Shown here in pieces: positions 6,001 to 9,000 of a stretch of 13,958 nt of DNA. Numbering within the stretch: position 1 is the stretch's first letter; each line of letters opens with the position of its first letter. A program made the position numbers. Origin of the DNA: a virus; the UHGV virus genome UHGV-0194130; one strand, given 5' to 3'.

Positions 6001-9000
6001 AAGTTATAATCTGATTTTGCTACAATGCTCATGTTAGTTTCCTTGCATACGGTTACTGACATAGAGGCCCGGTTTGTGTTCGCGCACTGCCGGGCTTCAC
6101 TATTTTTACTGGGCATTAACTCTTTCCTCTCTCAGGCTTTTAGCCAGTCGCTGCACAATCGCAGAGTTGATAGAAATTCCATCCATTTCAGCAACACGTC
6201 TAATCTCCTCCTTCATTCGCGCTGGCAAACGAAGCTGGAAACTTTGACTTTTACGACCTGTGTAAAGCACATCTTTCATAAGTAATCCTCCCACAATGAT
6301 ACCAACTTGGTTCTAGAACCAATTTAACACCATTTGTTTTGATGTCAAGTTGGTGCTATTGTTTAGCGAACATCTTTACGTTGAGGTCATATGAGCAAGT
6401 TCCCTAGTCATGAAATGGATAGGTTCAATATCAGGCTTCCGGCAGGAATGCGGGATGCTATAGCCTTAAGAGCAAAGGAAAACGGCAGATCAATGAATAC
6501 AGAACTAGTGTTTATCATTGATGATGCATTGAAGTCTCCGGTGCCTGCTGAGGTTGATAACTCAAGGATTATGAAGATTTACTCAAACCTCTCCGGGAAC
6601 AGGCCATCAAACAAAGAAGAGTTTGAGCGGTGGGAGAATGAGCTAGTCAAAGCAATTTTCTACTTACTAGATAGCATCAGTTCTCATTCGCAAATGTATC
6701 AAGCTCTCAGGAGCTTAAGGCAAGATGCATATAAAAATGTTTTTGGCGATGATGCTGAAGACATCCAGTTTTGAAGACCATTTCATCTGGTATCCTGCAC
6801 AAAACTAAGGAGGTTGGTGTGCTTGAATGGTTTCTGTTGGCTGCATTAGTCGTTTCTGGTTTGGTGTATGAGTATCGAATGCACTCTCTAACAAAAAAAA
6901 TAGGAATTCTAGAAAACGAATATTGTGCTCTCAAATCCTCACTGGAACGTGAGCAAGGGGACTTAAAAATCTCTCTGTCTAGCATTGAGCGTTCTATAGA
7001 GAGCTTAGAGGATAAGGTTGATCGTATAAAGAATGAGGATATTCATGATATTAAGGACGACATATCCTTCTTAAAATCTTGGTTGAAAAATGTTGGGAAA
7101 ATTGCCACATCAACACGAGATAAGCTCAATCCATCCATGGATGACTAATTACTCCTGTGCCATTCCGCTTAGCGATGCCACAATTCCAGCTCTTGCTAAA
7201 CGCTGGAACTCTTCGTTTCCTAGTGCCTCGCGTATTGCTTTTACGGCGGCCTTATTTGCCATAAATCTGCGTTCCGCCGCCGCTAATGCACCATCACTTG
7301 CCCCAACCTTAACTGCCTTTGTTGCCTCTTGAACAGCCTTTTCAATAGCGTAACGACCGCTTCTAGTTGCGGATAATTTCGCTATCGCTCCTTTTGCCAT
7401 TGCATCAATTGCCCCACCTGCAGCGCCACCCGCTATTGCTCCAATAACGCCTCCTCCAGAGAACCCTGCGATAGTGCCAGTAGTTCTAAAAGCGCCAGAC
7501 AATGCGCTCTCTAAAACTGGATGAAGGCCATTCTCAAGAGTGCTAATGGCTGGCATAGATCGCCCTGTCTGTTCAACATATCGAAGTGGCTTTGTTGCTG
7601 CTCGTGCAAGTTCTCCGTATGAACTTGTAATCCTGCCAAGTTCTGGAGAATATCGACTAATTGCCTTCACGTTTTGTGGGGTAAGAATAGTCGCGATATG
7701 CTTAATTCCAGCCTCTTCAGACTTACCTCCGCGTACCCCTTGCGACATTGCATCTTGTAATATTGATGCAATTGCTGGCGCGCGTTCCGACTCAGGTAGG
7801 GCGCTTATTATTTTATGGAACTGACCTGTTCCACTTTTTGCTGAACCCTGTAACGCCTTAGATCCATTAGTTACCAACTGATCAGTTGCAAGGTCTCTAC
7901 CAAACGCTGCTTCAGCCTGTTCTTGTGCTGTAAATCTTGCCTTTGACAGATCATTAGCTTTTTGCCAGTCATCAAGAAAACCGCCATTTTGAGCCATTAT
8001 GCGCATATCTTCCGTTGCTGCATCACGAAGCTCAGCCATGCGCCTTGCCGTATTTGCCTCACCAGACCTTATATACTTCTGCTCTGCGTCAGCAAGTTTA
8101 CTTCGCCATGCCTTCATGGCATCAAACGTGATTCCTTTTTTACCAGTTTTAGCATAAGCAGATGCGAATTGTTTCATCTCAGGAGTTAGCGGCATGCCAG
8201 CCAAAATATCACCCTGAATTGTAGCGTTCAGGTTTGACATTCTGGCCTTTGCGTCAGGCATCGTGGAGCGGACGCTATCCCATGCAGCCTTTTCTGAATT
8301 TTTCATTTTATCAATACTTGCCAAAACCCTTTGTTTTATGGCTGCACTTTTTTCTGATGCAGTTCCTGCTTCAGCCCCAAACTCATCCAATGCTGAGTTA
8401 AATTTCGACTCTATTTCACTGAATGCTTTGGTGTGTGCATCCTGTGTAATTCCGGGCTTTGACGCCAGAATCCCCTCCGCCTGAGCAAGACCACGACTAC
8501 CTGATCTCATGCCAGGAGTTAATGCGTTGATATCTATTCCAGCAGTATCTGCTGCTTTTGCTATTTCGTCTGACACATTAGCTGACTGTCTGGCAATAAT
8601 CTCTCTTCCTGTACCAGACTTTGCCATTTTCGAAACATCAGCAGCGGAATTTATTGCCCCGCCACCAAGAACTTGAGGTGATTTAGAGGTTAAGATCCTT
8701 CCAGCCCCAGAAAGTATCCCCTGAGCACCAATATTGATACCACCGTTAATGGCAGCATTTTGTGCAAAGTCGCCCTCCTGATTTGCAGCATCAGCAAGAG
8801 AACCTGCAATCATGTTTCCTGCGGAACCGATATCTTCAGCGAGCTTTGCTGGCGCTCCAGCAGCTTTTGCCGCTGTGCCAATTGGCAGGAGATACCCACC
8901 AATTGTTTCACCGGCTTGCGCGTAAGGGTCTGTCGGTCGATCGACTGGACGATAGACATCATCCAATACTTTTGGCCCACCAAGCCCCTGACTGATTGCA

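Follow-up and report, generated by a model that had tools for sequence, protein, structure and literature searches.

Introduction

Small phage-encoded proteins of the inner membrane can block the entry of DNA from other phages. HK97 gp15, which is encoded by a moron, and T4 Imm and Sp are single-pass proteins of this kind, much like what we propose below for HkcB of a P22-like prophage, but they target the tape-measure- or lysozyme-dependent entry of long-tailed or contractile phages and not the ejection-protein conduit of P22. For HK97 gp15 the mechanism by which injection is blocked is unknown (PMC10883804). The closest described system is SieA of P22. SieA proteins (types A-C) are 162-164 amino acids (aa) long and have three predicted transmembrane (TM) helices and a cytoplasmic FxRYPxEAxxFNK motif (PMC10883804). 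Mutations that allow escape from SieA lie in the C-terminal regions of gp16 and gp20, with the 532-546 region of gp16 among the sites (PMC10883804). Here we analyzed a 13,958-nucleotide stretch of virus genome UHGV-0194130 (hereafter the window), which is the right end of a P22-like (Lederbergvirus-type) prophage. In this window the position of sieA is held by hkcB, which is preceded by a gene for an Mnt-type repressor, Mnt127. We find that hkcB is an allele of the same cargo slot that holds sieA, that it is inherited independently of the repressor gene, and that its product is a good and plausible candidate for a new exclusion protein. The features that this comparison needs first are as follows.

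6391..6774, plus strand: mnt-type immI repressor allele (Mnt127), 127 aa, matching PF03869 and phrog_3178
6783..6821, plus strand: conserved 39-base-pair (bp) junction TCATCTGGTATCCTGCACAAAACTAAGGAGGTTGGTGTG, identical or near-identical across hkcB loci and sieA
6819..7148, plus strand: hkcB, 109 aa, identified by phrog_5962 and by identity to HK620 hkcB
7149..9269, minus strand: gene 16 (gp16 ejection or DNA-transfer protein), HK620 class, 94-100% identical to gp16 of HK620 and 611R6

hkcB occupies the cargo slot of sieA

The original prediction, made from the sequence of the window alone, placed the two plus-strand genes where P22 carries mnt and sieA, and the gene order indeed matches mnt ... 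sieA ... gene 16 of P22. The likeness extends to the start signals. The junction lies upstream of hkcB in HK620, 611R6, CUS-3, epsilon34 and the window and upstream of sieA in a P22-type phage, in every case with the common end CAAAACTAAGGAGGTTGGTGTG, and from this junction both genes use the same Shine-Dalgarno (SD) sequence (AAGGAGG) and GTG start. In the window we recovered each element that had been predicted, specifically a 44-bp spacer behind mnt (6775-6818), AAGGAGG at 6807-6813, GTG at 6819 and the 109-aa open reading frame (ORF). Directly to the left of the junction at least ten unrelated sequences begin when all hkcB loci are considered.

Scanning IMG/VR for the exact 22-nucleotide (nt) junction core CAAAACTAAGGAGGTTGGTGTG, and translating the cargo from its GTG, returned at least 120 contigs. 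Among the matches listed, the core heads about 13 groups of cargo ORFs that comprise HkcB, SieA and about ten other families. The groups and their counts are as follows.

HkcB subtype 1, 17 loci: N-terminal anchor and coiled coil
HkcB subtype 2, 10 loci: N-terminal anchor and coiled coil
SieA type A, 10 loci: polytopic membrane protein
129 aa (phrog_2651), 24 loci: signal peptide
62 aa, 12 loci: membrane protein
75 aa, 9 loci: membrane protein
116 aa, 6 loci: polytopic membrane protein
149 aa, 5 loci: single-pass membrane protein
99 aa, 5 loci: signal peptide
68 aa, 2 loci: signal peptide
103-106 aa (phrog_10450), 6 loci: N-terminal anchor and helical domain
109 aa (phrog_8100), 8 loci: N-terminal anchor and coiled coil, with a different C-terminal domain
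140 aa, 5 loci: apparently cytoplasmic

As judged by reading the sequences, 12 of the 13 groups listed have a signal peptide or TM segment, that is all but the 140-aa protein, and SieA is the only one of them with an assigned function. There is a single junction match per locus in 119 of 121 cases among the matches listed (loci L077-L195), and exactly one cargo family is present in 186 of the 191 retrieved loci that have any, with no locus carrying both HkcB and SieA; these last counts are of loci and not of independent phages, as some contigs were retrieved twice. Most cargo genes among the matches listed have the convergent gene 16 within 0-24 nt on their downstream side. The slot is bounded on its left by the 39-bp junction and on its right by the 3' end of gene 16, and the same slot holds sieA in P22. 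The occupant differs between loci: at least a dozen small genes without homology to one another take this place, as a rule one in each locus examined, and nearly all of them code for membrane or secreted proteins. hkcB is one allele of this sieA cargo slot and a self-contained accessory gene (moron). The earlier suggestion that the sieA position is a hotspot for cargo is borne out by these alternative small genes behind a shared junction. Variability of the ant moron was described in 2008; we found no published account of the junction common to these genes or of the alternative envelope proteins as a panel, a weak absence given that papers in subscription journals were mostly outside the search.

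hkcB is a conserved gene of a narrow family

The window hkcB is 98.8% identical in nucleotide sequence to hkcB of HK620 and 98.2% identical in protein sequence (tblastn). The HK620 gene carries the annotation "unknown", and its upstream neighbor is the divergent hkcC where the window has mnt, with nothing else of substance distinguishing the two. HkcB matches phrog_5962 at E 1.9e-61 over 108 of 109 positions, and this is only a family of unknown function, in line with the prediction that the small membrane protein was uncharacterized. Its homologs include CUS-3 hkcB, epsilon34 gene 14 and genes in SEN22 and vB_EcoP-611R6. HkcB is about 50% identical to the CUS-3/epsilon34 type, which is alike in length, in position and in abutting gene 16. 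The epsilon34 genome paper gives the function of its hkcB-family gene as unknown (PMC2629481), and full-text literature searches returned nothing further on hkcB function. An HkcB profile run against 1.84 billion representative proteins gave 12 hits, about half of which are coiled-coil noise. By these searches the family is narrow and confined to P22-like prophages. A scan of species-representative genomes found no relatives, and the genomic context reported below was for this reason drawn from IMG/VR, GenBank phages and E. coli RefSeq genomes.

The original prediction hinged on the membrane ORF being conserved, and we found the frame and GTG start of hkcB intact in 70 of 72 related loci, with a frameshift in L046. 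The two main subtypes differ by a proportion of synonymous differences (pS) of 0.67 and of nonsynonymous differences (pN) of 0.31, which corresponds to a nonsynonymous to synonymous rate ratio (dN/dS) of about 0.24, and of about 0.15 over codons 66-109, with synonymous sites near saturation. Codons 66-109 (nt 7014-7145) encode a C-terminal module that carries the family motif W-[LVI]-x-N-V-G. This motif, the N-terminal hydrophobic helix and a heptad-repeat helix are all kept in the most distant homologs, which are 35% and 26% identical to HkcB. One could still argue that hkcB is a non-functional remnant or a mis-called ORF whose conservation reflects a DNA-level boundary beside gene 16, given that its last 19 codons have 87-93% nucleotide identity between subtypes, which suggests recent recombination at the 3' junction, and that the L046 copy is frameshifted. 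This has next to no probability when set against pS values of 0.60-0.71 versus pN values of 0.17-0.42 between subtypes, an intact frame with a conserved start and SD, and homologs that retain architecture and motif at 26-35% identity. By these sequence measures hkcB is a genuine protein-coding gene under purifying selection.

Two short metagenomic contigs of 1712 and 1286 bp encode proteins (P0022 and P0023) in which an unrelated N-terminal part of about 60 residues is fused to the conserved C-terminal 45 residues of HkcB. These chimeras suggest that the edge of the C-terminal module has been a site of recombination or deletion.

HkcB had been described as having one N-terminal TM helix and a long acidic coiled coil. 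Residues 2-17 (nt 6822-6869) are indeed hydrophobic, with a Kyte-Doolittle value of 2.16 over 15 residues, and AlphaFold2 models the protein as a single uninterrupted helix from residue 2 to 103 with a mean predicted local distance difference test score (pLDDT) of 86. The acidity is only mild, with an isoelectric point of 5.2 and 20 D+E versus 16 K+R. Heptad positions read by eye from the sequence follow a 3-4 spacing with one shift near residues 71-75. All five HkcB subfamilies and two cargo families of similar architecture lack K/R ahead of the anchor and have 2-4 such residues behind it (2-3 in the HkcB subfamilies), so that by the positive-inside rule the coiled coil is predicted to be cytoplasmic (N-out, C-in). 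Our confidence in this topology is only moderate because the hydrophobic segment is short (about 16 residues). Residues 2-17 would anchor HkcB in the inner membrane, with the protein forming an oligomeric coiled coil of about 85 residues, or about 12 nm.

Profile hidden Markov model (HMM) and structure searches detected no homology between HkcB and any characterized protein. The sole HkcB match in PADLOC-DB 2.0 was DpdH (E 0.002, 16 bits), which is weak and looks compositional, and Mnt127 had no match in that database. Mimicry of gp7, gp20, gp16, the gp26 needle or another window protein was rejected, as BLASTP and family HMM comparisons with HkcB gave values no better than E of about 0.1.

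Mnt127 and hkcB are inherited independently

The original prediction grouped the two genes as a two-gene module, possibly a toxin-antitoxin-like pair. A ribbon-helix-helix (RHH) antitoxin or regulator would in that case restrain a membrane-damaging toxin that is released on infection. The arrangement lends itself to such an interpretation. RHH domains are frequent in type II antitoxins, and weak, sub-threshold matches to FitA-like, RHH_5 and HicB models were obtained. The two genes are also co-oriented and 44 bp apart with no terminator between them, and in another genome the 35%-identical hkcB homolog likewise follows an mnt gene in the layout mnt-hkcB-gp16, that mnt being of the classic 83-aa form.

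Co-occurrence analysis shows instead that the two genes assort independently. Full-length hkcB is present in 82 of 5426 complete E. coli genomes, with a partial or subtype-2 match in 35 more, as compared to only six of the 5426 that have the full-length Mnt127 allele. At least 80% of the 6000-7300 stretch occurs in one piece in only two E. coli genomes. Three of the six Mnt127 genomes have no match past window position 6821, and in E7476, the one of these that was examined, other genes follow mnt. Reference proteins were also placed on about 70 hkcB loci taken from IMG/VR, GenBank and RefSeq. Mnt127 lies directly upstream of hkcB in only three of these, namely the window, an IMG/VR locus (L023) that is identical to the window in every mapped protein, and E. 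coli MDR_56 (L008). Elsewhere hkcB has upstream neighbors from at least ten unrelated contexts, often a divergently oriented gene. Examples include divergent hkcC with orf59a, a divergent 322-aa gene, two co-directional CUS-3 genes and the divergent epsilon34 gene 15. HK620 carries hkcB with mnt and ant present only as remnants.

The toxin-antitoxin reading fails because mnt and hkcB are not co-inherited. It is further opposed by the Mnt-like DNA-binding domain of Mnt127 and its location at an arc-ant control region with operator-like palindromes, and by the fact that neither protein matches a toxin or antitoxin family above threshold, a known Abi model or a credible defense model. For HkcB, searches of Pfam, NCBIfam, PADLOC and the PDB gave no significant match to a toxin fold or family. 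We therefore consider a toxin-antitoxin or abortive-infection pair to be improbable. What accompanies hkcB throughout is the 3' end of gene 16 and not the RHH gene, and Mnt127 and hkcB are two independent functional units that happen to lie side by side in this prophage.

Mnt127 resembles the immI repressor of P22

Two further features of the window bear on the role of Mnt127.

6106..6279, minus strand: arc-like RHH repressor gene, 57 aa, matching PF03869 at E 1.2e-11, with an ATG start at 6279
6295..6390: divergent arc/mnt control region, 96 bp, supported by promoter scan and inverted repeats

The RHH domain of Mnt127 covers residues 7-50 (nt 6409-6540) and matches PF03869 at E 1.1e-16 with 60.9 bits, versus a Pfam cut-off of 20.4. 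The protein matches phrog_3178 from end to end (E 2.6e-59), and its best PDB match is the Mnt repressor 1mnt (E 2.3e-8). Relative to P22-type Mnt there is 50% identity over 42 residues of the DNA-binding domain and no relationship beyond it. The prediction of some 70 extra C-terminal residues is close to the 77 that we count past the RHH core. Whereas P22 Mnt has 83 aa, the 127-aa Mnt127 has a longer C-terminal domain with two predicted helices (59-69 and 75-121). AlphaFold2 places the helices of the whole protein at residues 20-30, 35-48, 59-69 and 75-121, the long last helix having a pLDDT of 84-94. In a structure search only the RHH part matched Arc/AmrZ, and that non-significantly, with no match to the C-terminal domain, and no similarity was seen between this domain and the C-terminal domain of P22 Mnt. 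From the models, the longer helical domain probably replaces the short tetramerization domain of P22 Mnt and would serve oligomerization. Full-length homologs of 123-135 aa with 50-66% identity are found in Yersinia, Cronobacter, Enterobacter, Serratia and Rahnella; the 127-aa form of Mnt is not unusual, and its family is spread across Enterobacterales.

Over its first ~110 nt (6391-6503), which encode the N-terminal part of the RHH region, this mnt gene has about 92% identity to the mnt genes of 13 other E. coli prophages, and the remainder is unmatched. The gene is mosaic, with an apparent recombination breakpoint inside the DNA-binding region, well ahead of the C-terminal helical domain.

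The arc-like gene is the first gene of a leftward arc-ant operon. Its mechanical ORF extends to a GTG at 6294, and an identical 174-nt gene is annotated by RefSeq in E. coli MDR_56. Within the control region a P_ant-like promoter lies on the minus strand (-35 TTGACA from 6348, a spacer of 16, and -10 TAAATT ending at 6321). Its -10 is overlapped by a perfect 16-bp palindrome, TTGGTTCTAGAACCAA, at 6307-6322, which is unique in the window (about 0.05 chance matches expected), and an outer inverted repeat (6293-6309/6346-6362) is also present. The palindrome and the outer repeat are candidate operators for Mnt and Arc, and the layout parallels the Omnt/Oarc/Pant/Pmnt annotation of the P22 record. 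A second copy of the palindrome was sought near hkcB and none was found. Mnt127 most likely uses its N-terminal RHH domain to bind one or more palindromic operators between arc and mnt, and would in this way hold the leftward arc-ant operon silent in the lysogen. With its 50% identical RHH domain, its orientation divergent from arc-ant and the operator-like palindromes overlapping P_ant, the first gene is an ordinary immI Mnt-type prophage repressor and a new allele of a known repressor type.

hkcB accompanies HK620-class gp16

In every hkcB locus examined, that of the 35%-identical homolog included, the stop codons of hkcB and gene 16 are separated by a zero-nucleotide gap, as compared to 22 nt between sieA and gene 16. 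The gp16 proteins encoded beside hkcB (window/HK620, CUS-3, epsilon34 and L009) share 57-96% identity with one another along almost the full sequence and have a C-terminal tail in common. In contrast, P22-class gp16 lacks this tail and matches them only over the N-terminal ~190 residues. HK620-class gp16 adjoins all 26 hkcB genes with readable downstream sequence among the matches listed. For the other cargo among these matches, recognizable downstream gp16 is of the P22 class in 61 cases and of the HK620 class in nine. SieA type A is linked here to P22-class gp16, whereas HkcB is linked to the HK620 class.

The C-terminus of HK620-class gp16 (window 7149-7600) consists of a glycine-rich hydrophobic stretch followed by a conserved tail of about 80 residues that is absent from the P22 class. 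A MAFFT alignment puts residues 532-546 of P22 gp16 opposite this glycine-rich hydrophobic stretch.

The tight juxtaposition raises the question of whether HkcB is a lytic-cycle helper of its own gp16, either as a chaperone, as an assembly factor or in the phage's own DNA delivery. Besides the zero-nucleotide gap, such a role would fit the exclusive occurrence of hkcB with HK620-class gp16 C-termini and the location of the conserved part of HkcB, which is encoded at the end of its gene closest to gene 16. However, Bas106, Huey, Dewey, Louie and Sodalis phiSG1, five viable isolates, have HK620-class gp16 followed directly by the tailspike gene, without hkcB and without the whole moron. hkcB is accessory because phages with HK620-class gp16 can lack it. 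Likewise, P22 hybrids that carry only genes 7, 20 and 16 of HK620 are viable and functional (PMC10883804). hkcB is dispensable for gp16 function and, because it lies antisense to the late operon, its expression would be poor at the time of gp16 synthesis. The helper role is largely refuted and very improbable.

Regarding these gp16 proteins, a published comparison gives HK620 and CUS-3 gp16 as only 26% identical, a figure that was used to attribute the partial SieA resistance of HK620 to gp16 (PMC10883804). By BLASTP we obtain 77% identity over 725 residues for the same pair (L001 and L004). The 26% figure disagrees with the HK620 and CUS-3 records, although the attribution of SieA resistance to gp16 may still hold.

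Signals for hkcB expression

hkcB, like mnt and sieA, is antisense to the late operon. A -10-like TTTCAT is located at 6781-6786 with its 3' end in the junction, and a -35-like AAGACA is located 17 nt upstream (6758-6763), inside the end of mnt. An extended -10-like TGgTATCCT is also present in the junction at 6788-6796. In the curated P22 record, from which we took the position of PsieA, this promoter is a 31-bp feature whose 3' end (TTTCAT) forms the left edge of the shared junction. As predicted, the hkcB stop (7146-7148) abuts the convergent gp16 stop (7149-7151), and a search for terminator-like sites found none in 6050-7400. With no terminator between mnt and hkcB, transcription from Pmnt should continue into hkcB in this prophage. 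In the lysogen hkcB would be transcribed from its own PsieA-like promoter together with Pmnt read-through, and its expression by the prophage is likely to judge from these signals.

Remaining features of the window

The immI or "ant moron" region lies between gp16 and the tailspike, with mnt and hkcB as the two plus-strand genes at its gp16 end. The structural genes around it are as follows.

Minus strand: gp10 (PF11134), Sf6-type tail needle, gp14, gp7 (PF25688), gp20 (PF16928) and gp16
Minus strand: tailspike with P22 head-binding domain

In addition to mnt and arc, the immI region contains a second Mnt-like RHH gene of 84 aa at 4296-4550 on the plus strand (PF03869 at 3e-15). A second ant-like gene without a Pfam domain is convergent with it (4577-5356, minus strand), and the first antirepressor-position gene, with Bro-N and P22AR_C domains, is at 5394-6116. 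The region thus holds three Arc/Mnt-family genes and two antirepressor-position genes, an arrangement that is also seen in E. coli MDR_56 and in several IMG/VR contigs. A hydrophobic 98-aa ORF without a Pfam match (2212-2508, minus strand) overlaps the tailspike stop by 7 nt. Past the tailspike end of the prophage there is a PEBP-family gene (PF01161; 1240-1716, plus strand), and beside it an IS200/IS605-type TnpB (OrfB_IS605, Cas12f1-like TNB and helix-turn-helix domains; 1-1131, minus strand) that reaches the window edge. An Rfam search of the window returned no RNA family.

Discussion

The likeness between hkcB and P22 sieA is one of location and start signals. Both are accessory genes of the same slot, next to gene 16 in convergent orientation and antisense to late transcription, and both begin at the same 39-bp junction with an identical SD and GTG. 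SieA is a membrane protein, as HkcB is predicted to be. The proteins themselves differ, as the original prediction had noted, and BLASTP of HkcB against SieA type A gave no alignment at E <= 100. HkcB lacks the FxRYPxEAxxFNK motif and has a single short anchor at its N-terminus with a long coiled coil behind it. Membership in the SieA family was rejected on homology (with type A compared), on the absence of the motif and on the number of TM segments, location next to gene 16, between genes 16 and 9 of a P22-like prophage, being the only one of these points of agreement. HkcB is a member of a cataloged family without a published function that works, at most, like SieA.

Two other affiliations were considered for HkcB and set aside. 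Rz-type i-spanins share the plan of a TM anchor at the N-terminus and, behind it, a long coiled coil of some 100 residues, but HkcB matches an Rz-like PHROG only at E 0.07, which is not significant, is not in a lysis cassette and has the opposite predicted topology; no o-spanin partner was identified. A connection to Tai or anti-Tai was also dropped, as HK620 is only the target phage in the Tai tail-assembly-inhibition paper, which provides no link to hkcB (PMC11364771).

We tentatively propose that HkcB excludes superinfecting P22-like phages at the DNA-delivery step, in a manner analogous to SieA and with a different protein, a proposal to which we give somewhat less than an even chance. Its possible target is the C-terminal region of HK620-class gp16, and HkcB may act on the membrane-proximal part of that region. 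Several observations weigh against this proposal. A slot in common with sieA shows common expression logic and not common function, and the sequence searches provide no homology match to back a function for HkcB. Specifically, Pfam and NCBIfam gave only sub-threshold coiled-coil matches, a PDB sequence search gave only non-significant coiled-coil matches, and a Foldseek search of BFVD with HkcB gave no match. HkcB has one short hydrophobic segment versus 3-4 TM helices in SieA, and at about 16 residues (Kyte-Doolittle 1.48 over 19) both its insertion and its topology are predictions. A generic promoter scan called no plus-strand promoter at the junction, where the hexamers are consensus matches only. 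Finally, the association of hkcB with HK620-class gp16 may be plain linkage, which can explain it because the two genes abut.

The features of HkcB could also be those of a lysogenic-conversion factor without an anti-phage role, in which a tethered cytoplasmic coiled coil would modulate the host envelope, division or stress. The N-terminal anchor, the predicted N-out/C-in topology and the long cytoplasmic coiled coil are reminiscent of E. coli YhcB/ZapG or PspB, hkcB is oriented for likely expression by the prophage, and the other cargo in the slot is diverse and need not all be anti-phage. Yet in Pfam HkcB has no similarity to YhcB (DUF1043), PspB or a host family at E <= 1, the sole characterized occupant of the slot is an exclusion protein, and the HkcB family is confined to P22-like prophages, always beside a DNA-delivery gene. 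We regard a conversion factor as unlikely, and part of the probability is given to none of the readings considered here.

Taken together, the window would contain an Mnt-type repressor followed by an independent accessory gene, hkcB, that sits in the sieA slot and whose most likely role is exclusion, a combined reading that comes close to an even chance without reaching it. A more specific and more doubtful version is that the slot is a plug-in expression socket and that the C-terminal module of HkcB recognizes the membrane-interacting C-terminus of HK620-class gp16, making HkcB a new, non-SieA exclusion family. Such recognition would account for the restriction of HkcB to loci with that gp16 class. 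If this version is true, most of the other cargo (phrog_2651, 7294, 21338, 10450, 8100 and others) would be uncharacterized exclusion or defense proteins too.

For annotation, the caution is that an RHH gene and a neighboring small membrane gene do not, in this region, make up a toxin-antitoxin pair. What remains of interest, in our assessment, is hkcB as a candidate exclusion gene and a socket with a dozen alternative envelope proteins. The cargo of the slot provides a ready comparative panel of candidate exclusion proteins that can be tested by the published single-copy galK-insertion assay for sieA. Should exclusion by HkcB depend on gp16 class, HkcB would provide a second, structurally simple probe of the gp7/gp20/gp16 conduit across the inner membrane, and it would help explain why the ejection proteins are among the most variable virion genes.

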